Virus record (IMG/VR): IMGVR_UViG_3300032157_000014
Coordinates: 1 to 49,848 of that record
From: a virus
DNA: 49,848 nucleotides
Reading direction: 5' to 3' (one strand)
Part shown: piece after piece, positions 6,420 to 25,793 of the stretch
Layout: each line of letters opens with the position of its first letter
How positions within the stretch are numbered: the first letter of the stretch is position 1
Program-made: the position numbers and the translations under genes
The notes under the pieces: model-generated
Told to the model about the DNA's origin: nothing
Seen by the model: the letters and a program-made list of their open reading frames with translations, nothing else
The model's database searches: none

Positions 6420-6764
6420 TCAGCGCCGGCGCCGCGGCGGCCGCTTAGCGTTGGCGTGCTGCCAGCAGTTCATCTCGCACCACACCGTCGAATAGACCTT
6501 GCGCCGGTCCGGATCCGGGACCGCCGCCTTGAAGTTGTCGTAGTTGATCGCCATCGCATGCTCGAGCAGCGCGTCCGCGACCGCCTTCCTGGGCAGCTCG
6601 GCGCGGAAGAGGTAGTCCGCGGCCGGCGTCCGCTTCACCTTCACCGCCAGGTGCGGGAAGGCCCGCTCGATATCGCCGGCCAGCCGCGCCCTCACCAGGA
6701 GGGTGTCACGCTTGTCCCGATGGGCTACGATGGACAGGAAGGCCTCCCGCAGGTAGATCCACAT
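6420..6764 (-). CDS. Hypothetical protein (114 aa), first gene of the late/packaging block
   Basis: Normal composition: MWIYLREAFLSIVAHRDKRDTLLVRARLAGDIERAF.... Basic C-terminus. Its ATG shares one base with the stop of the recombinase-remnant frame. Confidence 0.6.
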   Translation of the reverse strand: MWIYLREAFLSIVAHRDKRDTLLVRARLAGDIERAFPHLAVKVKRTPAADYLFRAELPRKAVADALLEHAMAINYDNFKAAVPDPDRRKVYSTVWCEMNCWQHANAKRPPRRRR

Positions 6765-6844
6765 CAGGCGGCCCTCCGCCAGTACGCCTCTGGCAGCGCG
6801 ATTTGGAGCTGAACGGTTCTAAGGTTGCCCAGGTCAGGGAGCCA
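6764..6844 (-). pseudogene. Orphan 3'-end remnant of a serine-recombinase gene (diverged copy of 7603..7683)
   Basis: Minus-strand translation is WLPDLGNLRTVQLQIALPEAYWRRAA*, against the intact gene's C-terminus WLPELGNLRTVRLEVDLPEDYWRRAA*. About 70 of 81 nt are identical, and homology ends abruptly at 6845. Confidence 0.75.
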
Positions 6845-6924
6845 CAAAAAATTCCGAAATAAGAACAGTGGCTTACAAAAGTCGCAAAATTTCATCGTTC
6901 ACATCTCTTTGAGTTGCAGTAGCT

Positions 6925-6950
6925 TTTGGTTCGAGTCCAGTTCGGGCTCA
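6925..6950 (+). other. tRNA 3'-end-like fragment (T-arm plus acceptor 3' strand); not an intact tRNA
   Basis: tttGGTTCGAGTCCagttcgggctca contains the canonical GGTTCGAGTCC T-stem/T-loop block. No complementary 5' acceptor strand is found about 70 nt upstream. Confidence 0.45.
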
Positions 6951-6954
6951 ATCA

Positions 6955-7194
6955 ATGGCACGCACCTCGAAAAAGCACAAGACAGCTTCCAAGCCGAAAA
7001 CGCGCATCGGCATTGGCACGCGTCGCATCCTCGTTATGAAGGTGGTCGAGCTCGGTGTGCCAGATCCGAAACGGGTCGCGCGTGCGTTTGTCGAGATTTT
7101 CAGGCCCGAAATCGAGAAGTGGCGTTACAGGTTTCACAATAAGAAAGCCGAAGCGAAGGCTCGGAAAAATCGCCGCAGAAAGCGCTCTACATAG
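6955..7194 (+). CDS. Basic small protein (79 aa) sharing a FRPEIE motif with the early 65-aa ORF at 25103..25300
   Basis: MARTSKKHKTASKPK...VPDPKRVARAFVEIFRPEIEKWRYRF...RKNRRRKRST, compared with ...VPGGFARDFCQIFRPEIESRF... in the 25103..25300 product. Confidence 0.5.
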   Translation: MARTSKKHKTASKPKTRIGIGTRRILVMKVVELGVPDPKRVARAFVEIFRPEIEKWRYRFHNKKAEAKARKNRRRKRST

Positions 7195-7263
7195 CGCCGT
7201 TGCTGGACACCGACCACAAGTGTCAACTATAAAGTCAACTAATACACGTTAGGCTCGTTACCC

Positions 7264-7587
7264 GTGGGATCCGTCGATCTTCGCTTTCTACCGCTGACGC
7301 TTTTGGCGATTTGTAGCGCATGGGTCGCGCCCGTTATTCTTGCTTGGGCCGTTGGGCTCGTTTTTCTCCCTGCCCGGCGGCGATATGCAATGTTTGTTCT
7401 GCGTTACGGCCTACTCGGTGGCGTTTTGGGCTTGTTGCTACTCGTGGTGCTTATGCACGCGTTTGGAACCTCTGGGGTGACTCCGGCGGGCCTTGCTTGG
7501 CTATTTTTCTTTGCTATGGGGTTCGGCTTTGTTGGCGTCGTAGTCGCGATTGTCGGGCTGTTCTCACGATGGCAAGCTGAACGTTAG
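7264..7587 (+). CDS. Integral membrane protein (107 aa, about 3-4 TM segments)
   Basis: GTG start. Hydrophobic stretches LTLLAICSAWVAPVILAWAVGLVFL, LLGGVLGLLLLVVLMHAF and LAWLFFFAMGFGFVGVVVAIVGLF. Confidence 0.55.
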   Translation: MGSVDLRFLPLTLLAICSAWVAPVILAWAVGLVFLPARRRYAMFVLRYGLLGGVLGLLLLVVLMHAFGTSGVTPAGLAWLFFFAMGFGFVGVVVAIVGLFSRWQAER

Positions 7588-7602
7588 AGGCTCGAGTCCC
7601 GT

Positions 7603-7683
7603 TCAGGCGGCCCTCCGCCAGTAGTCCTCTGGCAGATCAACTTCGAGCCGAACGGTTCTAAGGTTGCCCAGTTCGGGGAGCCA
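7603..7683. repeat. 81-bp direct repeat copy B (functional 3' end of the serine recombinase)
   Basis: Aligns with 6764..6844: tcaggcggccctccgccagta..cctctggcag......gaacggttctaaggttgcccag...agcca. Confidence 0.8.
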
Positions 7684-9273
7684 ACTCGTAGAGCTGCGAA
7701 CCACCTGCAGCGGCCGCGCGTCGACGAGGCGCGAAGGGTTGTAGTGGATCGTCGCTCCAGCGTCTTCGAGAACCACGCGCTCGATAAACGTCCCGAGGAA
7801 CTCGCGCACCTTCTTCGGATCTCCGCACTCGATCGACTCTTTTACAAATCCTTCCACCTGGGCAAGCGTCGCTTCGTCCAGGCAGGCTTGGGGCGCCGGC
7901 ATCGCTTCCAGCTCAGAGAGACTCTCCTCGAGCTGCTTGACTTGGGCGTTGAGTTCGCGCAGCCGCACCGTCAGATCTCCCAGGTTCGGCGCCCCGCGGC
8001 CGTGCTCTTCCAGGACGTCGAACACGTTCCGGCGCCGCCGCTCGGCGTCTCGCAGATCGTTGACGAGGGCGACTCGCCGCGTCGCCCGATCACGTACCCA
8101 GGACCCGCTGAGCTCGTGCATCTGCCTGGTGATGTCGGCTATTCGCTCCCTGGTCAGGATCCGCTCTTTGATCGGCGTCATCAACCAGGCGTCGAGGTTG
8201 TCGGCGGGGATCATCCTGCTGGCGCACCCGGATCCGCGGTTCGACCCGCCGCAGTTGTAGTAGCTGTACGTCTTTCGCTTCCTGCCGGTACCCGTCTGGA
8301 TCACGAGGCACTTGTTGCACGCGCCACACCGCAGCAGTCCGGTGAACAGGTGGGTGCTCAGGGCATGGCCATTCCCCTCGACGGGAGCGCGGCCAGCGAT
8401 GAGTTTCTGTACTGACATGAAATTCTCCTCAGAAATGATCGGCGCGTGGCTCAGTGTCCGGATCCAGTCTGCTTCCGGGCGCTCTTCACGTGTCGCGTGG
8501 TCGGTGCGGTTGAAGGTGGTGTAGCCGCAGTACGTCCAGTTGCGAAGTAGATTCAGGATCGTGTTCTTCGTCCACGTGGCCCCCCGCCGGCGCAGGCCTG
8601 CGCGATTGAGGCGGACAGCTATGTTTTTCACCCCGGATCCGGCGAGGGAGCGCGCGAAGATGTCCCGCACGATCATGGCCTCCGCTTCCACTATCGCGAG
8701 CCGCCGGCGCTTGCCGACAGGCACCGACTCGTAGCCGAACGGCACGCGGCCGCCGTTGAAGAAGCCGTCGCGCGCATTCTTCAGCAGCGATCGCCGCGTG
8801 TCCTTGCTGACCGTCCGGCTGTACTGCTCGTCCATCATCTCGAACATCTTCTCGAGCAGCCAGCCCTCGTCGGTGCCCGTGTTTATGTTCTGCGAGACGT
8901 AGATCATTTCGGTGCCACCGCGGCGCAGGTTGTGCTTCGTCCAGGCGGCGACCGCGCTGCTGCGGCTGAAGCGGGCCGTGTTCCAGAGGATGAAGTAGTC
9001 GATGTCGGCGATCCCGCAGTAGTCGACGGCCTCGTCGAACACGTCTCGCTTGACCTTGCGGCCGGAGACGCCTTCCTCCGTGAAGATCTTCACCACCGTC
9101 GCGCTGAGTTCCTCGGCCTTCCGCCTGCAGGCCTCGATCTGGCCGTCGATCGGGAGCTCCTCCTCGGCCTGGCCAGCCGTGCTGACGCGCGCGAGGATGA
9201 TCGCCTTTTTCACCGCGGCCACTCTACGATCTCCCGCCGAGCCGGTATATGTGACGTCGGGAGACTTTCTCAC
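7603..9273 (-). CDS. Large serine recombinase (integrase)
   Basis: Resolvase-type N-terminus KKAIILARVSTAGQ containing the catalytic Ser. Recombinase domain, Zn-ribbon LLRCGACNKCL...YYNCGG, and a C-terminal coiled coil. The true start may be the GTG at 9222, just after the upstream stop at 9224. Confidence 0.85.
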   Translation of the reverse strand: MRKSPDVTYTGSAGDRRVAAVKKAIILARVSTAGQAEEELPIDGQIEACRRKAEELSATVVKIFTEEGVSGRKVKRDVFDEAVDYCGIADIDYFILWNTARFSRSSAVAAWTKHNLRRGGTEMIYVSQNINTGTDEGWLLEKMFEMMDEQYSRTVSKDTRRSLLKNARDGFFNGGRVPFGYESVPVGKRRRLAIVEAEAMIVRDIFARSLAGSGVKNIAVRLNRAGLRRRGATWTKNTILNLLRNWTYCGYTTFNRTDHATREERPEADWIRTLSHAPIISEENFMSVQKLIAGRAPVEGNGHALSTHLFTGLLRCGACNKCLVIQTGTGRKRKTYSYYNCGGSNRGSGCASRMIPADNLDAWLMTPIKERILTRERIADITRQMHELSGSWVRDRATRRVALVNDLRDAERRRRNVFDVLEEHGRGAPNLGDLTVRLRELNAQVKQLEESLSELEAMPAPQACLDEATLAQVEGFVKESIECGDPKKVREFLGTFIERVVLEDAGATIHYNPSRLVDARPLQVVRSSTSWLPELGNLRTVRLEVDLPEDYWRRAA

Positions 9274-9721
9274 CTAACTCTGCCTTCATCCGCTCAAGGA
9301 TCTCGGTCACGCTCTTGCCCTCGGCCATGAGCGACTCGATGAACCGATTGCGCTGGAAGCGCAGATACGAGCGGTAGGAGCGCATCCGCACCTCGAGATC
9401 TCCCTTGTCCGTGCGGCACGCTGGATCCTGGTCGTAGATGCGCCACGCGAGCATGAAGTTGTCGAAGCCGATCGCCTCCGCCACGAGCAGCTGAGTGCGC
9501 GACAGCCCCATGCGCGCGAGTTCGTCGAGGCGCGAATCGCGATCGGCGGCGACGCGCAAATGCGACGTAGGAGTAGAGCGACCATCTTGGTACCCACCCC
9601 CCCCTGGAGCCAGGCCGGCCGGCGCCTGCCGACCCCCCAGGCCAGGCGCCAGGATCTCCGCGGCGGCCGATCGAGGCACAGCTCCAGGTGTCGAGTTGCG
9701 CTTTTGAGCCGGTGACGGCAT
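9224..9721 (-). CDS. HTH protein upstream of the serine recombinase (possible regulator or directionality factor); start uncertain
   Basis: The C-terminal half has normal composition: ...LDELARMGLSRTQLLVAEAIGFDNFML...AEGKSVTEILERMKAELGEKVSRRHIYRL, a resolvase/Psq-like HTH. The N-terminal 60 aa are low-complexity, so an alternative start is the Met at 9511. Confidence 0.4.
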   Translation of the reverse strand: MPSPAQKRNSTPGAVPRSAAAEILAPGLGGRQAPAGLAPGGGGYQDGRSTPTSHLRVAADRDSRLDELARMGLSRTQLLVAEAIGFDNFMLAWRIYDQDPACRTDKGDLEVRMRSYRSYLRFQRNRFIESLMAEGKSVTEILERMKAELGEKVSRRHIYRLGGRS

Positions 9722-9967
9722 CAGCTATCCCCCTGATTCCACTGGTGCGACATGCGCTTTCCCGAGGAGTGCGCACGTCGGGGCCGCCAGCTCGCAGGCT
9801 GAGTTAGGCCGTTCTCGAGCTGCGCTGTGGACCAGGGGCGTGCGCACCCCTCGGCGTCTGATTCCACTAGAGAAACTGTTTGTGTTCTGGCACCCTTTAT
9901 ATGCGTTGTGTCGGGCTGCAGCGATCCGGACGCGTCGATGGCTGGTGTCATGGCGATCGGGATCTCG

Positions 9968-11008
9968 CTACGCGGGGGAAGTCGGCTTGGAGGACTGCAG
10001 GCGCTTGAGCAGCTCGGTGACTGGCGTGCTCATCTTGGCGAGCGGATTTGCCCTGTCGACATCACGCACCAGCTTGCGAATGGCGACGCTGGTGTAGATC
10101 TCGGTGCTCTTCGGATCCTTGTGCCCCATGAGCTCCTGCGTCGAGCGTAGGTGGACGTCCGACTCGGTGAGCTCAGCGCCGTAAAGGTGACGCGCTGCGT
10201 GCGGGTGCAGCTGGTCGATCGGGATCCCGGCGCGGCGGCCGTACTTCCCCACCAGGTCGTTGATCGCGCGTCGATCGAGACGCCGGCGCTCGCCGCGGTA
10301 CTCTGATTTCTGCACGTTCCTATTCATCAGGCTGACGAAAAGAACGTGATCGCCACCGCTGATCTCCGTGTCGATTTCCTTCAGCGCGGGATGCTCGAGG
10401 TACACGCGCAGCATCAGATCCGCTTCCTGGGGAACCGGCACCATCCGCTCGCGATCGCCCTTCTCGATGACCTTGATGAAGATCCTCGGTCGACCTTCAA
10501 CCTTGTCCTCGATCAACGAGGATCTGTTCAGCCGCACCACGGCACTCACGCGCACACCGCAGCCGACCAGGATGGAAAGAATCGACGCGTCGCGCACACC
10601 CTCGAAGGTGTTCAGATCCGGCGCCCAGATCAGTTTTTCCGCGCTGGCCAGGCGCATCACGTGCGGCAGCCTGCGGCCGGTGCGCGGATGCTCGAGCAGC
10701 TCCGCCGGCGACGCGTCGACGTACTTCATCATCACCATCCAGCGGCCGAATTCCTTCACCGCTGACACCTGCGGCCTGCGCCCGCTGGGCGTGAGGCCTC
10801 GCTTGATCAGCCAGGGCCCGCTGAATGCCACCAGGTCCTCGAGCGTCGCGTCGCGCGGATCCCGGCCGTCCAGGAACTCGAGGAGGCGCTCGAGCGCCAG
10901 GCGGTAATTGCCGATCGTGCTCTTCGAGCGATTCTTGTTCGCGGCCTTGTAGCTCAGGAACGCAGTGACGAGCTCGACGCGGTTCATCGCGGGCTCCCCA
11001 ATCTGCAT
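9968..11008 (-). CDS. Tyrosine recombinase, XerC/XerD-like
   Basis: N-terminal SAM-like core-binding region (TIGNYRLALERLLEFL). Catalytic-domain motifs VRVSAVVRL, HPHAARHLYG and LMGHKDPKSTEIYT. An alternative start is the Met at 10987. Confidence 0.8.
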   Translation of the reverse strand: MQIGEPAMNRVELVTAFLSYKAANKNRSKSTIGNYRLALERLLEFLDGRDPRDATLEDLVAFSGPWLIKRGLTPSGRRPQVSAVKEFGRWMVMMKYVDASPAELLEHPRTGRRLPHVMRLASAEKLIWAPDLNTFEGVRDASILSILVGCGVRVSAVVRLNRSSLIEDKVEGRPRIFIKVIEKGDRERMVPVPQEADLMLRVYLEHPALKEIDTEISGGDHVLFVSLMNRNVQKSEYRGERRRLDRRAINDLVGKYGRRAGIPIDQLHPHAARHLYGAELTESDVHLRSTQELMGHKDPKSTEIYTSVAIRKLVRDVDRANPLAKMSTPVTELLKRLQSSKPTSPA

Positions 11009-11059
11009 TCAGCGGGTGCAGATTTGAAAGAATTGCAGGGGGGTAGCGCATTTCCCGGA

Positions 11060-11455
11060 TGCAACCCGTGGATCGAGCACGCGATCGCAGGCAAGTGCCT
11101 GTCTCCCCTCTCAAAACCCGCCCACGGATATCCACGGATCGACCCGTGGATGGCCCCCGAACCCGTGGTTACAAATGCGGCCTGCTGCTCAGACCCGTGG
11201 ATGCGCGATCCGTGCGATTCCCCCTTCTTCTTCTTCTTTTCTTCTTTCAAGAGAGAGAGATAGGTAAAGGGGCGCGGCTGGAGGCCGAAAACCGGACCCG
11301 TGGAGAAAAGAGGCCGACCCGTGGATTTAGTAGGCCGATCCGTGGAAATACGGATACAACCTGTGGGGGCCACTGCCTCCGCGATCAATGGGTTAGGATA
11401 GGAATGACCTATCAACCACGGCTCAGGAGAAATGCCTACACCAACCCGTGCGGCG
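11060..11455. promoter_or_regulatory. Iteron array (ACCCGTGGAT-type repeats); candidate replication origin or recombinase arm-site cluster
   Basis: At least 6 near-perfect (A)CCCGTGGA(T) copies at about 11064, 11142, 11161, 11193, 11296 and 11317. Variants occur at 11338, 11358 and 11444, and CCACGGAT copies at 11122 and 11132. Three copies are spaced 21 bp apart (11296/11317/11338, each preceded by ggccga). Confidence 0.6.
11220..11270. repeat. Polypyrimidine/polypurine tract inside the iteron array (possible DNA-unwinding or H-DNA element)
   Basis: ccccttcttcttcttcttttcttctttcaagagagagagataggtaaagggg. This is a pure-pyrimidine run followed by a purine-rich run, with CCCC/GGGG ends. Confidence 0.5.
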
Positions 11456-11570: not shown

Positions 11571-14426
11571 TCAGGACGAACCACCGCCAGGGCGAGGCGG
11601 GTACTGCGGCTGGCCGGCCGCGACCGTCTCCGGGATCGCATCCGTTGGCCCGACAGCGAAGAGGCCGAACTCGCGCATCTTTGCGATCGACAGCGCGCAG
11701 AGGTGAGACACGCGTCGGCCCTGGTCGTTGAAGTCCGCACCGATCGTGCGCTCCACTTCGTCGCCCAGGATGACGCCGGCGGCGCGCAGCTGCTGCTTGT
11801 AGACGCGATCGCTCTTGATCGGCATGTTCTGCCAGGACTCGCGCAGCGAATTGGTGTGCTTCAGGTGGGCAATGACATGCGCCGGCCGCACGAGCAAGCA
11901 TTGCTCGCCGTCGATCGTGTCCCAGGTGTACGGCATGCGGAAGTTGCGCATCGCGATTTCACTCAGCAGGATCTCCGTGATCCACACCCAGGGCTCGCGC
12001 GTGGCTTTCGTCTCGCCAATGTGCGAGTTCATTTCCGCCTGCAGGTCCTTGAGGAAGCCGCCGGTGCCGACGTCGATGCCGGCGAACTCGCAGAGCAGCT
12101 CCCAGGCGATGCGCAGCGCGGCGTAGTTGCCCGCCATGCGCGAGGCGCCGGCGTCGGTGGCCAGCGCCATCGAGATCTTCAGCTGCTGGTCCTTGCAAGC
12201 CTGGTATCGCTCGAGCACCTGCCGACGGGACAGCGTGGTGATGAATTCCAGCCATTGGCGAATGGGGAAGCGCGGCAGGTCCTCGGGGATTGGCGCGCCC
12301 ATCTTCGATTTGCCGTGCACGTCGACGAATTGCGATCGCACCAGCTTGCCGACGAGGCTCTGCACCGGGACGTCCTCGCCGGCGAGCAGTACAGGCGCGC
12401 TGACGAGGAACTCTTTCATGTCAGCGCCCCGCTGGGTCATCGTGTACTGGTAGGCCTCCTGCAGCATGCGCACCGCGTAGTCGATGATTTCCTGCTTGCG
12501 GGCGGAGATCTCCTCCCATCCCACCGGGTGCGAGGTGTGCGCGAGCGAGGTGAGGATCCGGAACGGCGTCTGGATGGATTCGCCCGAGAGCATGATCATC
12601 GCGATCGCGCGCTCGAGGCGCTTGACGAAGGTTGACTTGCCCGAGCCCTTGGGTGCCTGCATCTCCATGTGCGGCCAAAAGCCGAGCAGCGCCTTCAGGT
12701 GCGCGCCCAGGGCCCATACCAGGACCAGGGTGCCGGCGTTCTCCTTCATCGTGTCCTGGAACGCCCTGATCACGCGCTCGGCCTCGTGGATCCGGCCGGA
12801 AGGGAACGTCAAGCGCCAATACGGGCACTGCTGGCGAGGGTCGATGAAGTAGCAGTTGGGGCCTTCGTTCACCACCAGGCGGCCGTCGCGCCATGCCACG
12901 CCGACGAAGTTGATCGCGTTGCGCGCGCCCAGGTGCGCCGTGCGCTCGAGGATGTTCACCATGCGCAGGAACGGGATCGGGCCGAAGACCGGGCCGAACT
13001 TCTTCCAGTTGTCGATGTTGTGCAGCTTCTCGTCCTCGATCACGCGCCGGAGCAGCTTCGCGCCGTGCCGCGGCGCCTGCACCGACACCGAGAACATGAC
13101 GTTGGGCTGCGCGTCCGGATCTCCGGTCATGGTCGACGTCGGGCTGGCGATCGTCACCCTCGAGAGGGATGCGATGCGGAACCCGGCCAGGTCCGAGTAC
13201 TCGAGCTTGGTGGTCTTCTCGCCTGAGTCGCCGTCGTTGACCTCGACCTCCTTCACCTTGCTGGTGAAGTCCGGCCGCACGCGGTAGCTCCAGTAGCGGC
13301 TATCGTCCTGCCAGGGCAGGTAGACGCGGATCTTGCGCTTGGGAGCGTCGTCAGGGTCCTTGCGCTCGCCGCTCGGCGGCCGGCCGGGGATCAGCCAGGG
13401 CTCGAGCTTCTGCAGCGCGCCGCGCTGCTTCATGGGATCGCGCTCCTTCTGGACCATTTCGTTCAGGTCCTTCCAGGGCCAGTCCAGCTGGTCGACGAGG
13501 AGAGCCGAGATATCGAGCTCGGTGAGCAGCTCGTGCGCGCGCCAGGCCGCGCGCGCGCCCGGGCAGATCCCGGCCAGCTGGTGGCCAGGAGGGAAAGGCG
13601 GATCGTTCGAAAAGCACAGTATCACCTGCTTGCCCATGAGCAGCCGCCAGTTCATGTGCTCGACGGTGGCCGTGCCCCGCACAGCGATCGCCGCGGTGTA
13701 CGCCAGCTCGGCCGCCTCGACGCTCAGCGCGTCGATCGCGCCCTCGACCACGTAGATCGTGTTCGCCTTGTCGAAGCGCTCCCAATCGGAACACCACGGG
13801 TATCCCGTCTTCTCGCCGTGCGACATCGTCTTCGTGCCGCCGTTGAGGGCCGGATCCAGGTAGCGCAGATCCACCGCCACCGGGTGGCCAGGATTGCGGC
13901 CGCGCACGATGAAGGCGGCCGCGGGCCCGCCGTAGCCGAACTCGCCGGACTTCACCTTGGAGCTGGTCCAGGTGTTCCAGCCGATCGTTCCCTTGGCGAT
14001 GCCACGCCGCACGATCGCCTCGGGGATCTTGCGCTCGTCGACGAGGTAGCTGAGCGCCTCCTCGGGCTTGTCCAGGCACCGCTCCGCGATGTACTCGGCG
14101 CGGCTCTTCTCGCGGTGTTCCTGCTTCGGCGCGTCCATTGGCACCCCGAGGTACGCATGCAGCCGCCGCAGCGCCGCCTTGAAGTCGCAGCCCTCCACGT
14201 ACATCACGAAGTCGACGCAGCTGCCGCTCTCGCCCTTGCCGCCGGCGTGGTCCTTGAACGCCCATTCGTGCTTGCTGTTCTTGTAGATCGACAGCGATGG
14301 GTTCTTGTCCGGCCGGCCGGGCGCGTGCCACAGCGTGCTGCCTGCCGGGCCTTTCGCCTTTTTCAGTCCGAGCCATTCCGCGAGCTGCGGGAGATCTATT
14401 CTTCTTTTTAGTTCTTCGATGTCCAT
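11571..14426 (-). CDS. Bifunctional DNA primase / P-loop helicase (TOPRIM plus DUF927/D5-type NTPase)
   Basis: 951 aa. The N-terminal region is primase Zn-finger-like (HAPGRPDKNPSLSIY...ESGSCVDFVMYVEG). TOPRIM motif IYVVEGAIDALS. Walker A motif QAPKGSGKST in the C-terminal half. Confidence 0.8.
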   Translation of the reverse strand: MDIEELKRRIDLPQLAEWLGLKKAKGPAGSTLWHAPGRPDKNPSLSIYKNSKHEWAFKDHAGGKGESGSCVDFVMYVEGCDFKAALRRLHAYLGVPMDAPKQEHREKSRAEYIAERCLDKPEEALSYLVDERKIPEAIVRRGIAKGTIGWNTWTSSKVKSGEFGYGGPAAAFIVRGRNPGHPVAVDLRYLDPALNGGTKTMSHGEKTGYPWCSDWERFDKANTIYVVEGAIDALSVEAAELAYTAAIAVRGTATVEHMNWRLLMGKQVILCFSNDPPFPPGHQLAGICPGARAAWRAHELLTELDISALLVDQLDWPWKDLNEMVQKERDPMKQRGALQKLEPWLIPGRPPSGERKDPDDAPKRKIRVYLPWQDDSRYWSYRVRPDFTSKVKEVEVNDGDSGEKTTKLEYSDLAGFRIASLSRVTIASPTSTMTGDPDAQPNVMFSVSVQAPRHGAKLLRRVIEDEKLHNIDNWKKFGPVFGPIPFLRMVNILERTAHLGARNAINFVGVAWRDGRLVVNEGPNCYFIDPRQQCPYWRLTFPSGRIHEAERVIRAFQDTMKENAGTLVLVWALGAHLKALLGFWPHMEMQAPKGSGKSTFVKRLERAIAMIMLSGESIQTPFRILTSLAHTSHPVGWEEISARKQEIIDYAVRMLQEAYQYTMTQRGADMKEFLVSAPVLLAGEDVPVQSLVGKLVRSQFVDVHGKSKMGAPIPEDLPRFPIRQWLEFITTLSRRQVLERYQACKDQQLKISMALATDAGASRMAGNYAALRIAWELLCEFAGIDVGTGGFLKDLQAEMNSHIGETKATREPWVWITEILLSEIAMRNFRMPYTWDTIDGEQCLLVRPAHVIAHLKHTNSLRESWQNMPIKSDRVYKQQLRAAGVILGDEVERTIGADFNDQGRRVSHLCALSIAKMREFGLFAVGPTDAIPETVAAGQPQYPPRPGGGSS

Positions 14427-15856: not shown

Positions 15857-16462
15857 CTAGTGCTGCTCCTTCTTCGGCGGCACCGGGCCTGCGGCCGCGG
15901 CGACGATGGCGTCAGCGTTCTGCTTGCCTGTGCCGATCACGACCGCGCCGCCGGGCACGGCGATCACGAGGCCAGGCGGAATGTCCGGCCCCTTCATGTT
16001 CGAGGCGCTGAACCGTGCGATCCACTCGTGCCTGAAATCCGTGTCCGGCGAGAGGCGCCCGGCGATGATCTCGTCGACGCAGGCGTCCATCTTGGCAACT
16101 GCTGCTTCGTCAGACTCAGCGATCCATTGCCCCACGAAGTTCGACGGCGAGAGAAATTTCGGGAAGTTGTCCAACGTCGGTGTATGGCTCGGGTCCAGCG
16201 CGAAGAGGATTACCTCGTGAGTCGCGCCTTGAAGACGGATAACAGCGGGCGGGAAACCTGCGATCGGGCGCAGATGAATCACCGCGATCACGTAGCTGTG
16301 CCACATTGGATGGGCCCAAGGCGCCTCGACAATCCAACCACCGAGCTCGCCGCCCACCTTTCCGTGCTTCCTTCTCAGGGCCGCAATGTCCAAGCGCCAC
16401 GCCTTGCCGTGTTCACCCTGCTTCGCCGGCGGCAGCGCCAGCCGCGGTGCCTCGTCCTTCAT
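15857..16462 (-). CDS. Hypothetical protein (201 aa)
   Basis: Normal composition. ATGA overlap with the upstream gene's stop at 16459. Confidence 0.55.
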   Translation of the reverse strand: MKDEAPRLALPPAKQGEHGKAWRLDIAALRRKHGKVGGELGGWIVEAPWAHPMWHSYVIAVIHLRPIAGFPPAVIRLQGATHEVILFALDPSHTPTLDNFPKFLSPSNFVGQWIAESDEAAVAKMDACVDEIIAGRLSPDTDFRHEWIARFSASNMKGPDIPPGLVIAVPGGAVVIGTGKQNADAIVAAAAGPVPPKKEQH

Positions 16463-17565
16463 GCGAGCCTCCCGTCATGCGTGCGGCCGTCCAGGCGCCT
16501 GCCGGCGAGCTTCTTGCCGGCGCGGAAGAACTCTTTGCCGTGCAGCGCGATCACCTGGTAGCCGCGGTTCGGGTTCATCTTCCCCGCGATATCGTCGTCG
16601 TCGACCTCGATCACCTTTCCGGGCGGCTCGGGGAGAACGTCCGTCTCGCACGGGTACCAAACGCCCCACTGCTTGAAGTGGAACGGCACGCCGGCCTCCG
16701 CGCAGTCGTCGCGCACCTTGCGGAACCAGTCCGGATCCGGGGCCCGGGCTCGAGCTCCGCTCTCGCCGCCGGCGATCACCCAATCCAGGCCGTGCGCACC
16801 GGCGAAGATCTCCCCGTCCGAGGCCTTCCTGGAGCCCGTCAGCGCGTCGTATTGGCCTCCGCGCAGGTTGCGCAGGTCCACGGCACCGATCGCCGGCTCG
16901 TAGCTCAGGAAGCGCTTGGCGGCCAGCGTGACCATCAGGATCGGGATCCGCTCGTCCGCACGCTTCTGGTCGCCCGCGGTCACGCCCAGGTGCACGTTCG
17001 GTAGCGGCCACTCCGGTGCGGGAAACTTGCCTAGCAGCCGCGGCTCGGCCGGCATGGCGTAGCGCGCGTACTCGAGGAGGAGCTCCACCCGGATCTCGCC
17101 GAAGCTGCGCTGATCCTGCCCCTTGTTCCAGACCTCTGCTGTCTTGTCGTCCAGCCAGGTCAGGAAGGCCTGCATCCTCTCCGGGTGCTTCGTCAGGACC
17201 TGGAAGGTGTGCTGCCGGCCGATCATCATCACGCACCAGGCCGCGGCGATGAACTCGAACGGCACCTTCGGGTGGAACAGGTCGGCCAGGTTGCAGACGA
17301 AGATCCGGCGTGCGCGCTTCCACTTGAGGGGCCAGCTCAGCCGCAGCGGGAGCGTGCGCACGATCCCGCTCCAGACCAGGTGCCCCTTCTCGGTCTTGTC
17401 GACCGTGCCGAAAAACGCCCGGTGAATCTTCGGGTTCGGGTTATGCGCCATGCGCCAGGAGTCCAGCAGCGCGTAGCAGTTGGTGCACTCGGGGCTCGCG
17501 AACTCGCAGCCGGCCACGATCGGCCAGCTGGCGTCGGTCCATTCGATCGGACTGTACTCAGCCAT
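16459..17565 (-). CDS. Phage Gp37/Gp68-family protein (DUF5131)
   Basis: MAEYSPIEWTDASWPIVAGCEFASPECTNCYA is the characteristic N-terminus of this family. The start is placed at the Met overlapping the stop of the upstream small ORF (ATGGCTGA). The track start at 17586 adds only 7 aa. Confidence 0.7.
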   Translation of the reverse strand: MAEYSPIEWTDASWPIVAGCEFASPECTNCYALLDSWRMAHNPNPKIHRAFFGTVDKTEKGHLVWSGIVRTLPLRLSWPLKWKRARRIFVCNLADLFHPKVPFEFIAAAWCVMMIGRQHTFQVLTKHPERMQAFLTWLDDKTAEVWNKGQDQRSFGEIRVELLLEYARYAMPAEPRLLGKFPAPEWPLPNVHLGVTAGDQKRADERIPILMVTLAAKRFLSYEPAIGAVDLRNLRGGQYDALTGSRKASDGEIFAGAHGLDWVIAGGESGARARAPDPDWFRKVRDDCAEAGVPFHFKQWGVWYPCETDVLPEPPGKVIEVDDDDIAGKMNPNRGYQVIALHGKEFFRAGKKLAGRRLDGRTHDGRLA

Positions 17566-17728
17566 GCGGACTCCGCAGGAAGTCAAAGGGAGACAGCAGC
17601 GCCGCGGCGACGAAGAATCCGCCGATCCATTCGACGACGAACCAGTAGCCCGCCGCGTCGATCAAGGCGAGCGCCGCTGTCATGGCGACCGTGCCAACGA
17701 CAGCGACGATGTTGGCGTTGCGGTTCAC
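17558..17728 (-). CDS. Small membrane protein (56 aa, GTG start); not in the ORF track
   Basis: Hand translation: VNRNANIVAVVGTVAMTAALALIDAAGYWFVVEWIGGFFVAAALLSPFDFLRSPHG*. GTGA overlap with the upstream stop at 17725, and its stop overlaps the DUF5131 ATG. Confidence 0.45.
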   Translation of the reverse strand: MNRNANIVAVVGTVAMTAALALIDAAGYWFVVEWIGGFFVAAALLSPFDFLRSPHG

Positions 17729-23756: not shown

Positions 23757-24046
23757 GCCATCCGCTCGCACAGATTCGGCTGCATGCCTACGCGATCGAC
23801 ATCCTTCTCAATCCCGATCTTGGCGCTGCCGAAAACGTCAAACGCCGAGTTGTCGAACCACGGGGCGCAATACCTGGCGATGTCCACCCGCAGGCGAACA
23901 ACGTGAAGCTCGAGGGCCGCCTCGGCGTGGAAGAAACTGTTTCGGCCGGAGAACTCCGAGCGGTTCCAGAATTTCAGGCGCTCGAGCTCTTCCGTGTAGG
24001 TGCGCAGCGGCTGCTGCCAGACGTCGACGAATTCTTCGCCGTTCAC
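23753..24046 (-). CDS. Hypothetical protein (97 aa, GTG start)
   Basis: VNGEEFVDVWQQPLRTYTEELERLKFWNRSEFSGRNSFFHAEAALELHVV.... GTGA overlap with the recombinase stop at 24043. Confidence 0.5.
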   Translation of the reverse strand: MNGEEFVDVWQQPLRTYTEELERLKFWNRSEFSGRNSFFHAEAALELHVVRLRVDIARYCAPWFDNSAFDVFGSAKIGIEKDVDRVGMQPNLCERMA

Positions 24047-24750
24047 GCCTGCCCCCGCTCGTCGAAGGCCTTCCGCAGATCTTTCTTCCGCACCCGCCCG
24101 CCGCCGTCGAGCTCGGTGAGCTCGCGCTCGAGGTCTTCCTTGGTCACGCCGGCATATACCGCCGTCGACTTGCGATCCTTCTGTCCGAGTGCGGCCTGGA
24201 CCACGCCGAGCGGATCGGCCGACTTCGAATTCCGGTAGATGCGCATCGCCCGGGTGTGCCTGGCGTAGTGCGGCGATCCGTCCCGCACGCCAGCCTCCCT
24301 GCACCAGTACTTGATGCGCGCCTGGTAGCTGCGGATCGCGAGCGCGTTGCCTTCGCGGGATACCACCAGCGGGCCCTCCGGATCCTTGTAGCCGGCGAGC
24401 TCGCCGATGCGCAGCAGGTCCTTGAGCGCCGCTTCCACCGGCTGCGTCACCGGCACCTGGTGATCGAGCGCCTGGCCCTTGGCCGGCTGCTTGCGGATCT
24501 CCCCAGGCACGAACAGCCAGCGCTGCTTGAGCGCGGCGATCGCGTCAGCGCGCGTGAAGCGCGAGAACTCCCCGATCCGGAAGCCCGTCTTGACGAGCAA
24601 CAATAGCCACGCGGCATCGCGGCGCGCGGCAGGACTCGACCGGGAGCGGATGGTTCGGAAGAGCCTTGCCTCTTCCGCATCCGTCCAGTATTTCCTGAAC
24701 ACGTTGTCCATGCTTCTTTTCCCCCGTTGCTTCCACCGGCTGCGAGACAA
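24043..24750 (-). CDS. Small tyrosine recombinase (catalytic domain only, 235 aa)
   Basis: LLLVKTGFRIGEF (Arg I region), SPHYARHTRA (HxxR) and LGQKDRKSTAVYAG (the His/Tyr region). An alternative start is the Met at 24711. Confidence 0.7.
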   Translation of the reverse strand: MSRSRWKQRGKRSMDNVFRKYWTDAEEARLFRTIRSRSSPAARRDAAWLLLLVKTGFRIGEFSRFTRADAIAALKQRWLFVPGEIRKQPAKGQALDHQVPVTQPVEAALKDLLRIGELAGYKDPEGPLVVSREGNALAIRSYQARIKYWCREAGVRDGSPHYARHTRAMRIYRNSKSADPLGVVQAALGQKDRKSTAVYAGVTKEDLERELTELDGGGRVRKKDLRKAFDERGQA

Positions 24751-25106: not shown

Positions 25107-25300
25107 TCGGAGGCCTTCGCCGGCGTGGCTGCCGGCGTGGTAAGGAAGCGCGATTCGATTTCGGGCCGGAAGATCTGGCAGAAGTCCCGGGCAAAGCCGC
25201 CGGGCACCTTGCCGGCGGGCAGCTGCTCGGTAACCTGCAGCGGCAGCCGCTGCGCGATCGTCTTGGCGTCAGCCACGCGCCAACCCCTTAACGCGCGCAT
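25103..25300 (-). CDS. Hypothetical small protein (65 aa or shorter) with a FRPEIE motif
   Basis: ...GKVPGGFARDFCQIFRPEIESRFLTT.... ATGA overlap with the downstream start. Its 5' end overlaps the upstream gene by 32 nt, so the real start may be internal. Confidence 0.4.
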   Translation of the reverse strand: MRALRGWRVADAKTIAQRLPLQVTEQLPAGKVPGGFARDFCQIFRPEIESRFLTTPAATPAKASE

Positions 25301-25793
25301 GCGCCTCGACGATCGCGCCGACCCATTCGAATACCTGCTTGTTCAGTTCGCCGAGCTCTCCGCGGTCGATCCGGCCGTCCTGCAGGCAATGGCGCAGGAG
25401 GTGGTGGTAGCTGCCGCCCTCCTCGTGCACCTTCGCCAAGAGCTCGAGCAGCGCTTCGTCGGAGCATTTGCTGAAATCGGGAACCGGGAAGGCCACGCAG
25501 TTCATGCCGCGCGCCTGGGCTTGCAGGTGTTCGATGCGGCCGGTCGCAAGGAAGATCAGCTGCATGTCCTGCACGGTCAGCTTGTGGTGCGGGGTGCCGT
25601 CGCCCTCGGCCAGCTTGTTGTAGAGGACCCCTGCCGACGTCCCGATCAGTTCAGCGACCTTGGGGATCCCCCCCTCGAATGCGTCGCAGATAGCCCGCGC
25701 GGCCGCGCGCGCATCGGCCGATGCCTGCATGTGTGAGGAAAAGCGATCGGCTAACTTTGCGTGAGCAGAGGGACGGCGCATGCTCTGGCTCAT
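25269..25793 (-). CDS. CII (CP76)-like phage regulatory protein
   Basis: ...VAELIGTSAGVLYNKLAEGDGTPHHKLTVQDMQLIFLATGRIEHLQAQARGMNCVAFPVP...GRIDRGELGELNKQV... resembles the Phage_CP76 pattern as I remember it. It is the second gene of the leftward early operon. Confidence 0.4.
   Translation of the reverse strand: MSQSMRRPSAHAKLADRFSSHMQASADARAAARAICDAFEGGIPKVAELIGTSAGVLYNKLAEGDGTPHHKLTVQDMQLIFLATGRIEHLQAQARGMNCVAFPVPDFSKCSDEALLELLAKVHEEGGSYHHLLRHCLQDGRIDRGELGELNKQVFEWVGAIVEAHARVKGLARG

Follow-up and report, generated by a model that had tools for sequence, protein, structure and literature searches.

The IMG/VR virus record IMGVR_UViG_3300032157_000014 (49,848 nt; this whole stretch of DNA is referred to below as the window) represents the whole genome, circular in form, of a temperate siphovirus and encodes three site-specific recombinases: a large serine recombinase (LSR), a Xer-like tyrosine recombinase, and a small tyrosine recombinase consisting of a catalytic domain only. 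The LSR is predicted from its sequence and its surroundings to be the phage integrase; its attachment site (attP) is located within its own open reading frame (ORF), and the core of this site corresponds to the 3′-end of a tRNA gene. A new finding for the clade that it forms with its relatives is that these serine integrases target tRNA genes, that the attP used lies within the integrase gene itself, and that the tail of the integrase is exchanged in the process. All three genes are intact and conserved in related phages, the anatomy of the att site was read in the free and integrated states, and both junctions of one prophage were recovered. As a whole, the data are probably best explained by an arrangement in which the LSR is the integrase with attP in its own ORF, the Xer-like enzyme is an accessory protein, and the small tyrosine recombinase belongs to the early module.

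The large serine recombinase and its attachment site

Pfam searches and scans of the entire record identified exactly three recombinase genes, in agreement with a preliminary description of this DNA, made from the sequence alone, which had placed three enzymes of two mechanistic classes at these positions (Table 1). The LSR probably starts at the GTG at 9222, immediately past the stop codon of the upstream ORF. It comprises a Resolvase domain (PF00239, E = 1e-21) carrying the serine nucleophile, followed in the C-terminal half by Recombinase (PF07508) and Zn_ribbon_recom (PF13408) domains, matches the integrase family phrog_95 with 314 bits, and aligns to SprA of SPbeta over residues 146–471. 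R12, S14, and Q18 of the RVS..Q motif are invariant in an alignment of four sequences; when 20 sequences are aligned, R12 and S14 are invariant and Q18 is nearly so (at least 90%). Cys299, 302, 324, and 333 are also conserved.

The attP is a 49-bp dyad contained within the last 27 codons of the LSR ORF. Its 9-bp core TGGCTCCCC (positions 7675–7683), within which the dyad centre falls, encodes W514-L515-P516 and, read as its reverse complement, matches the tRNA-Asn(GUU) 3′-end. The core occupies the same position in approximately 40 loci, where it is followed by either the phage P′ arm or the body of tRNA-Asn; in the cultured phage vB_MaeS-yong1 (L004, MT855965.1; hereafter, yong1), it reads TGGCGTCCC. 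ARAGORN located a tRNA-Asn gene abutting the LSR gene in loci L013, L059, and L137, and the LSR gene was found at an edge of the prophage in L013, G003, G004, G006, and G092. In L013, a contig of a metagenome-assembled genome (MAG), the LSR gene is directly followed by tyrB-, uvrB-, and RNase E-like host genes (read from the first residues), and in the proviruses from isolate genomes it is positioned at the extreme end of the record. A comparison of a free form (L057), in which the LSR gene is followed by genes for a 334-aa protein, the terminase, and the portal, with an integrated form on a 549-kb contig (L059) showed 97.5% identity up to AAGTGGCTCCCC, where the two diverge at the core. Both junctions of the 43.4-kb prophage in G092 carry the 14-bp sequence ATCTGGCTCCCCGA, and on the host side the B arm consists of T-rich DNA resembling a terminator; the contigs of the MAG G002 end before the other prophage junction is reached.

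The geometry of the site differs between the two states in a regular manner. The left arm GGT(T/G)C is located 19 nt before the core in both, and the right-arm motif G(A/C)ACC starts at +17 in all 18 free sites and at +12 in 21 of the 25 integrated sites, as counted by the motif of the script; the remaining four, counted by reading the sequence, have GAACG at +12. The P and P′ arms co-vary as a palindrome (e.g., GGTTCCCAGTAAG with CTTACTGGGAAC), and the outer arms GGTTC...GAACC resemble the T-arm of a tRNA. The attP of serine integrases is a dyad of approximately 50 bp, and the outer motif (zinc-ribbon, ZD) is 5 bp nearer to the centre in attB (PMC3783163). The anatomy of the present site matches this pattern, with an attP of approximately 50 bp bearing dyad arms, an attB approximately 10 bp shorter, and an outer motif displaced inward by 5 bp; it differs from a tyrosine-recombinase core, in which the arms are 6–8 bp apart. 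The LSR would recombine attP with the tRNA gene and rebuild the tRNA's 3′-end.

A different target was identified in G159 (contig C6; L127 and L143), in which the cassette of LSR and attP has the opposite orientation to the remaining phage genome and diverges from the gene for the 334-aa protein. This prophage resides in tRNA-His, with GGTTC at −19, the core TGGGGTGGC, GAACC at +12, and P′ at +17 in attL, and its Xer-like gene and the adjoining partner gene (described below) are located at the prophage end opposite the LSR gene. Because the flipped cassette retains the geometry at tRNA-His, the LSR and attP constitute an autonomous cassette that reads the T-arm region of tRNA genes. In L127 (positions 1351–1504), between the divergent 334-aa gene and the flipped LSR gene, there is also a GGTTC-N28-GAACC dyad lacking a core, which may be a relic of the ancestral attP position.

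Several points weigh against the overall interpretation. Catalysis is deduced from sequence, and the sequence after the core in provirus G001 is not tRNA-like. The attP/attB identity of 9–18 bp exceeds what a serine integrase needs, and the 3′-end of a tRNA gene is a classical target of tyrosine integrases (PMC9262239). The genome revealed no recognizable recombination directionality factor (RDF). A target site for either tyrosine recombinase was looked for and not found, so that the roles of both enzymes rest on analogy. Finally, the small tyrosine recombinase occurs without the other two in the parts seen of G048, G270, and the phage contig L139/L142, so the trio may not be obligatory.

The lack of a recognizable RDF, the length of the core compared with the 2 bp needed by a serine integrase, the nature of the target, and the tight linkage of the Xer-like gene to the partner-LSR pair could together indicate that the Xer-like enzyme, alone or with the small tyrosine recombinase, excises the prophage at the 9–14-bp attL/attR repeat and thereby stands in for the missing RDF. 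This is unlikely. The need to rebuild the tRNA's 3′-end accounts for the core length; conserved inverted binding arms are absent close to the core, where the only conserved symmetry is that of the outer GGTTC/GAACC motifs, 25 bp apart; the host-side B arm is unrelated between hosts; and in G159 the Xer-like and LSR genes lie at opposite ends of the prophage. The assignment of the LSR as the integrase is preferred here, and in the literature searched no serine integrase was reported to target a tRNA gene or to have attP in its own ORF, which is not proof of absence.

Exchange of the integrase tail upon integration

The crossover is positioned 24 codons before the LSR stop codon, and integration would replace the conserved tail of the enzyme by a tail read from the antisense strand of the tRNA. 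In the free phage, the LSR ends in WLP followed by (E/D)L..LRT..L....LP.RF.(K/R)(K/R)AA, a conserved 23-residue tail (...RRAA), and 17 of the 18 free-form tails (window plus 17 loci) end in -AA or -ANA after the conserved LP.RF. The last residues of the tail lie outside the 49-bp site, and their conservation is thus at the protein level. In the prophage, the LSR ends in WLPDLGSNQGPAD (...DLGSNQGPAD), a 10-residue tail from the tRNA-Asn antisense sequence that extends to a TAA in the anticodon-loop.

The C-terminal -AA after basic residues resembles the recognition tags of ClpX, and the tail may control the stability or directionality of the LSR. A broader proposal would have the LSR gene act as a state sensor, with the -AA tail as a ClpXP-type degron or directionality element that replaces or supplements an RDF, and would have the Xer-like and small tyrosine recombinases form a heteromeric XerC/XerD-like pair acting on the replicon; this combination is speculative and, on balance, doubtful.

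A second copy of the attachment segment

A diverged second copy of the core, P′ arm, and LSR tail is located beyond the end of the LSR gene, separated from it by a low-GC insert (Table 1). The copy starts exactly at the core-like sequence TGGCTCCCT and ends in a TGATG overlap with the start of a 114-aa gene. The insert contains two plus-strand ORFs (6955–7194, encoding a basic 79-aa protein, and 7264–7587, encoding a membrane-like 107-aa protein), and no homologue of it was found in any related locus. The T-rich flank preceding the second core resembles the host B arm of G092, and the entire structure reads P-O-P′-[insert]-O′-P′, the second copy being X-O′-P′. On the basis of this order and the B-arm-like flank, the duplicated segment looks like an attL-type scar, which may have originated from an old aberrant excision or from site-specific capture.

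The partner gene and its control region

The preliminary description had noted a helix-turn-helix protein before the LSR. A 165-aa helical, helix-turn-helix-like protein is indeed conserved there, with homologues in 39 loci, and residues 61–165 of its AlphaFold2 (AF2) model are all helical with pLDDT values above 90; it matched no Pfam, NCBIfam, or PADLOC family and gave no PDB fold match at E < 1. A non-coding stretch of approximately 150–350 nt is present at the junction of the Xer-like and partner genes in 22 loci. The motif AACGG(G/C)CTAA(AACAG) was identified in 15 of these 22 control regions, the window carrying the variant AACGGCCTAA. In addition, one copy of a paired AAAGCG(T/C)A(A/T)(T/C)TC repeat is located approximately 45 nt upstream of the partner ORF and the other within its first codons, an arrangement that looks like an operator pair. 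Cargo genes are inserted between the Xer-like and partner genes in two loci, namely an HNH endonuclease gene (L025:8100–9559) and a gene for an ArdC-like anti-restriction protein/metallopeptidase (L055:3397–4335); this junction is a hot spot for accessory genes.

The Xer-like recombinase, the primase, and the iterons

The Xer-like gene probably starts at the ATG at 10987, and the resulting length of 339 aa agrees with the database gene call. The protein is a simple two-domain tyrosine recombinase (Phage_int_SAM_1 and Phage_integrase in Pfam) that aligns end to end with Escherichia coli XerD (1a0p) and retains the R-K-H-R-H-Y residues; among 27 relatives, R146, K176, R266, H289, and Y298 are invariant and H263 is nearly so. 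XerD and XerC are its nearest NCBIfam families, with scores far below the equivalog cut-offs (TIGR02225 XerD, 158.8 vs. 329.6 bits; TIGR02224 XerC, 156.1 vs. 335 bits). The family comprises more than 400 clusters at 90% identity, and those with names are mostly from Gallionella, Sulfuricella, Sideroxyarcus, and Rhodocyclales MAGs. The N-terminal arm-binding domain that marks lambda-type (heterobivalent) phage integrases had no Pfam match in either tyrosine enzyme, and the SAM-like domain of the Xer-like protein starts at approximately residue 8–15. A 586-aa ATPase encoded nearby was considered as an FtsK-like partner and rejected, as it is HerA/DUF87-like and gave no FtsK domain match. Just upstream of the likely start codon, at 11000–11024, there is a palindrome, AATCTGCA-N9-TGCAGATT, in place of which relatives carry a related ATCTGCCCCTGGGGA motif; it may be a translational or transcriptional operator.

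The iteron-rich region that had been reported beside the Xer-like gene is real (11062–11352), and three of its iteron copies are phased at 21 bp. The class of iteron follows the family of the primase rather than that of the recombinase. CCACGG-type iterons accompany the primases of the window family (window, L040, L044, L045, L050, and yong1); the window primase shares approximately 54% identity with its counterparts in P2-like phages of Burkholderia and Ralstonia. In the P2-like phage KS5, GCCACGGGT-type repeats follow a 54%-identical primase, although the integrase there is not related. A divergent primase of 1,055 aa is accompanied by TGCACC-type iterons in G001, L034, L037, and L038, the loci whose Xer-like proteins are closest to that of the window. 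From this association, the iteron array is probably the replication origin, and the suggestion that it provides a Xer or dif-like target is not upheld.

The preliminary description had also raised the use of alternative att sites. On a reading of this kind, the Xer-like enzyme would be a second integrase with its own attP in the iteron-rich region and a separate chromosomal target. The order primase, non-coding region, tyrosine integrase does recur in KS5, where an annotated integrase occupies the same place, and inverted repeat pairs are present upstream of the gene (e.g., ATCCACGG-N6-CCGTGGAT at 11130–11151). However, wherever the flanks of a prophage copy could be read (at least 25 copies), the junction with host DNA is at the attP of the LSR, and no border is located beside the Xer-like gene. 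The protein moreover lacks an arm-binding domain, its closest homologues are associated with different iterons and a divergent primase, and KS5 combines similar iterons with an unrelated integrase; a second integrase is accordingly improbable. The Xer-like enzyme would instead be a conserved accessory enzyme acting on the replicating circle, in multimer resolution or cyclization. The constant location of the gene just behind primase and origin, and the simple two-domain architecture of the protein, suggest by analogy a role like that of Cre or ResD on the circle, which is tentatively put forward here as having roughly one chance in three of being correct; within it, multimer resolution is the leading, though weak, candidate.

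The small tyrosine recombinase

The small enzyme had been described as a minimal tyrosine recombinase of 235 aa beside a truncated methyltransferase-like gene. It does consist of a catalytic domain only (Phage_integrase in Pfam, from approximately residue 8), its length is more likely 222 aa, counted from the start at 24711, and the neighbouring gene encodes a 242-aa protein that gives a partial N6_Mtase match. R45, K74, H148, R151, and Y186 are retained, and Gln177 replaces the second His, which is present in most relatives; with this substitution, alignment showed the catalytic residues to be kept in all three recombinases, the loss of which had been named as grounds for doubt. The AF2 model (pLDDT 87) matches the catalytic domains of Xer, Cre, and lambda Int. 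Approximately 100 clusters at 50% identity make up the family, nearly all of 190–240 aa. A scan of viral contigs with the sequence of the small enzyme alone gave no match, and relatives were found by an alignment-based scan.

In every relative, comprising 15 IMG/VR loci, yong1, and L139, the gene is located 0.4–1 kb downstream of that for a CII-like activator, and it precedes the primase gene. As L139/L142 carries the small tyrosine recombinase without the Xer-like gene and the LSR gene in the 25 kb seen, this enzyme belongs with the early and replication module, from CII to primase, and not with the LSR. It may work together with the Xer-like enzyme, perhaps as a heteromeric pair.

An inversion switch had likewise been suggested, and one or both tyrosine enzymes might indeed be invertases of a short regulatory or host-range segment, in the manner of FimB/FimE or the shufflon recombinase Rci. 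The small enzyme has the size of FimB/FimE (approximately 200 aa) and no core-binding domain. No convincing inverted repeats were found near either gene or elsewhere in the genome, only low-identity, GC-rich chance pairs, in a search that 9-bp invertase sites would escape. Further, there is no NCBIfam invertase match for the small enzyme and only weak ones (E ~1e-5) for the Xer-like protein, and in all relatives the surroundings of both genes retain a collinear order. These findings make an invertase about as improbable as a second integrase.

Conservation of the three recombinases

The trio is a signature of a phage lineage rather than an oddity of a single genome, and this lineage is widespread, mostly in betaproteobacterial hosts (Burkholderiales and related groups). 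Every intact provirus or genome of it that was examined in full encodes three recombinases that look active, and the trio has a shared order in yong1, IMG/VR proviruses, and genomes of the order Burkholderiales. All three genes are present in the IMG/VR provirus G001, in the proviruses G003, G004, and G006 from isolate genomes, and in the MAG G002, and yong1 encodes homologues of all three with 40–42% identity, as well as a small ORF between the Xer-like and LSR genes. Among 401 genomes of the order Burkholderiales, close LSR homologues were detected in five, the same five carried the Xer-like gene, and four of them the small tyrosine recombinase. A metagenome scan returned 80 loci. Where upstream DNA was available and the LSR identity was at least 35% (dozens of contigs), the order primase, Xer-like recombinase, 165-aa partner, LSR was near-universal. 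The loci that lack the Xer-like gene (L030–L032 and L041) were set aside as rearranged remnants, with head genes or an insertion sequence next to the partner gene. In one of these, L030, a P4-type tyrosine integrase gene (Arm-DNA-bind_3 and Phage_integrase; positions 11693–13033) is situated just past the tRNA-Asn occupied by the remnant prophage, so that two integrative elements share one tRNA site in tandem.

That the additional recombinases are functionless passengers of module shuffling, whether decaying or neutral, would fit the cargo found at module borders (the HNH and ArdC-like genes and the 758-bp insert of the window), the mosaic modules, and the different genome position of the cassette in yong1, and yet it is the least credible of the explanations considered, as the catalytic residues are conserved in 27 Xer-like and 14 small tyrosine recombinase relatives of 41–80% identity, the synteny is maintained across hosts of 38–67% GC, and the only broken copies, of all three genes together, were in a provirus (G007) estimated to be 53% complete. 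The possibility that two of the genes are decaying remnants, raised in the preliminary description, is thus countered by three intact genes co-conserved across a large lineage. Its proposal of separate roles holds insofar as the LSR can be assigned as the integrase and the trio are not redundant remnants; inversion and alternative att-site use by the Xer-like enzyme are not favoured, and dimer resolution of a replicating circle, a further role on its list, may apply.

Genome context

The ends of the record share a 127-bp assembly overlap and a 1,285-aa ORF spans the junction, showing that the record is a circle, of 49,721 bp. The GC content is approximately 65%, and nearly all genes are on the minus strand. 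A temperate siphovirus is indicated by PHROG and Pfam matches to a CHC2/Toprim primase and a CII-like activator as well as to a terminase, a portal, a Mu-like head protease, a tape measure protein, and a tail tip of the lambda J type. Phage and plasmid collections searched by megablast with the region gave no match, and no tRNA or Rfam element was found in the window. None of the three recombinases had a match in PADLOC, and a role in a defence system was rejected on this ground. Two candidate defence families of PADLOC, PDC-M41B (E = 1e-52) and PDC-M30B (E = 1e-46), were matched by a 375-aa DUF5131 protein (phrog_2045) encoded elsewhere in the window (16459–17586).

Table 1. Positions of the recombinase genes, attachment sequences, and associated features in the window
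Feature	Position	Strand	Description
Second, diverged copy of core, P′ arm, and LSR tail	6764–6844	−	81-nt direct repeat of 7603–7683, 88% identical
Low-GC insert	6845–7602	+	758 bp, 53% GC, between the two core/P′ copies
P′ arm and coding sequence of viral-form LSR tail	7603–7674	−	ELGNLRTVRLEVDLPEDYWRRAA; would be removed from the ORF on integration
LSR	7603–9222	−	539 aa from GTG 9222; ORF open to 9273 (556 aa)
attP	7654–7702	−	49-bp dyad GGTTC-N14-TGGCTCCCC-N16-GAACC
Partner protein	9224–9721	−	165 aa, helical, helix-turn-helix-like; conserved between Xer-like recombinase and LSR
Non-coding control region	9722–9967	−	Between Xer-like and partner genes
Xer-like tyrosine recombinase	9968–10987	−	339 aa; ORF (346 aa) open to 11008
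Iteron array	11062–11352		(G)ACCCGTGGA(T) repeats, at least 6 in direct and 2 in inverted orientation; polypurine tract
Primase	11571–14426	−	951 aa; CHC2 zinc finger and Toprim (Pfam); phrog_5629, 1195 bits
Small tyrosine recombinase	24043–24711	−	222 aa (database gene call), start 24711; ORF open to 24750
CII-like activator	25269–25793	−	phrog_101; upstream of small tyrosine recombinase

Comparison with known systems

The integrases of A118/LI, phiC31, Bxb1, and SPbeta (SprA) show the same domain order of resolvase, recombinase, and zinc ribbon, and share with the LSR of the window a dyad-armed attP of approximately 50 bp, an arm motif lying 5 bp nearer to the centre in attB (PMC3783163), and a gene at the prophage edge. 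Unlike in these phages, the attP of the window LSR is part of the integrase coding sequence, the arms are T-arm-like, and a tRNA gene is targeted at its 3′-end (Asn, and His in one relative); the serine integrases of mycobacteriophages reportedly make no use of tRNA genes (PMC9262239). The LSR is only 26–27% identical to the nearest named phage integrases.

The closest precedent for the exchange of the tail is the integration-dependent immunity of the mycobacteriophages BPs and Brujita, in which the repressor gene contains attP and loses the sequence for an ssrA-like tag on integration (Broussard et al. 2013; reviewed in PMC9262239). As in the window, a phage ORF harbours attP at its 3′-end, a tRNA gene serves as the target, and the tail that is lost ends in -AA, which in BPs and Brujita is the form of an ssrA-like degradation tag; the integrase of these phages is tagged as well. 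By analogy, a degron function of the LSR tail is putative. In BPs and Brujita, it is the repressor that is truncated, by a tyrosine integrase acting at a common core of approximately 35 bp, whereas here the serine integrase itself is remodelled. To our knowledge, the principle of switching through an attP within an ORF has so far been known only from this system of a tyrosine integrase and a repressor.

Phage P1, with Cre/loxP and Cin, likewise combines both recombinase classes in one phage, and its enzymes have separate jobs. Cre, a simple two-domain tyrosine recombinase without an arm-binding domain that functions in cyclization and dimer resolution, provides a model for the Xer-like enzyme. 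In contrast to the present phage, P1 does not integrate, its serine enzyme is a small invertase, and it has no third enzyme; no lox-like site was found in the window. The Xer-like enzyme also shares its SAM-like core-binding and catalytic domains and the R-K-H-R-H-Y residues with XerC/XerD, which act at dif, and with ResD of F, which acts at rfsF, a system that adjoins the replication origin, as the Xer-like gene probably does. XerD is its best match in both structure and sequence. Unlike XerC/XerD, it is phage-encoded, and neither a dif-like 28-bp site nor an FtsK-type partner was found for it.

The only cultured phage with homologues of all three recombinases in the collections searched is yong1, which in addition has the partner gene, a primase of the same family, and iterons of the CCGTGGA type. 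Its cassette of Xer-like recombinase, partner, and LSR lies between the tail/lysis genes and the immunity region instead of after the primase, and its record labels the LSR as “DNA invertase Pin-like” and both tyrosine enzymes as “XerD.” This phage is assigned to Microcystis, whose genomes are low in GC; given its GC content of 66.7% and the primase, iterons, and trio that it shares with an otherwise betaproteobacterial lineage, the stated host looks doubtful.

Significance

Automatic labels such as XerD and Pin-like invertase mask the real integrase in this lineage, and the iteron array beside the Xer-like gene is probably to be read as an origin, not as a recombination site. Because the three genes are linked in a common environmental phage lineage, the roles of both tyrosine recombinases become testable. 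Serine integrases are major tools for genome engineering, and a clade that reads the T-arm and acceptor end of tRNA genes would add compact sites that can be predicted from sequence. For the phages themselves, an attP inside the integrase ORF means that the enzyme of the virus and that of the prophage inherently differ; if the proposed role of the tail is true, the stability or directionality of the LSR would differ between the free and the prophage states.

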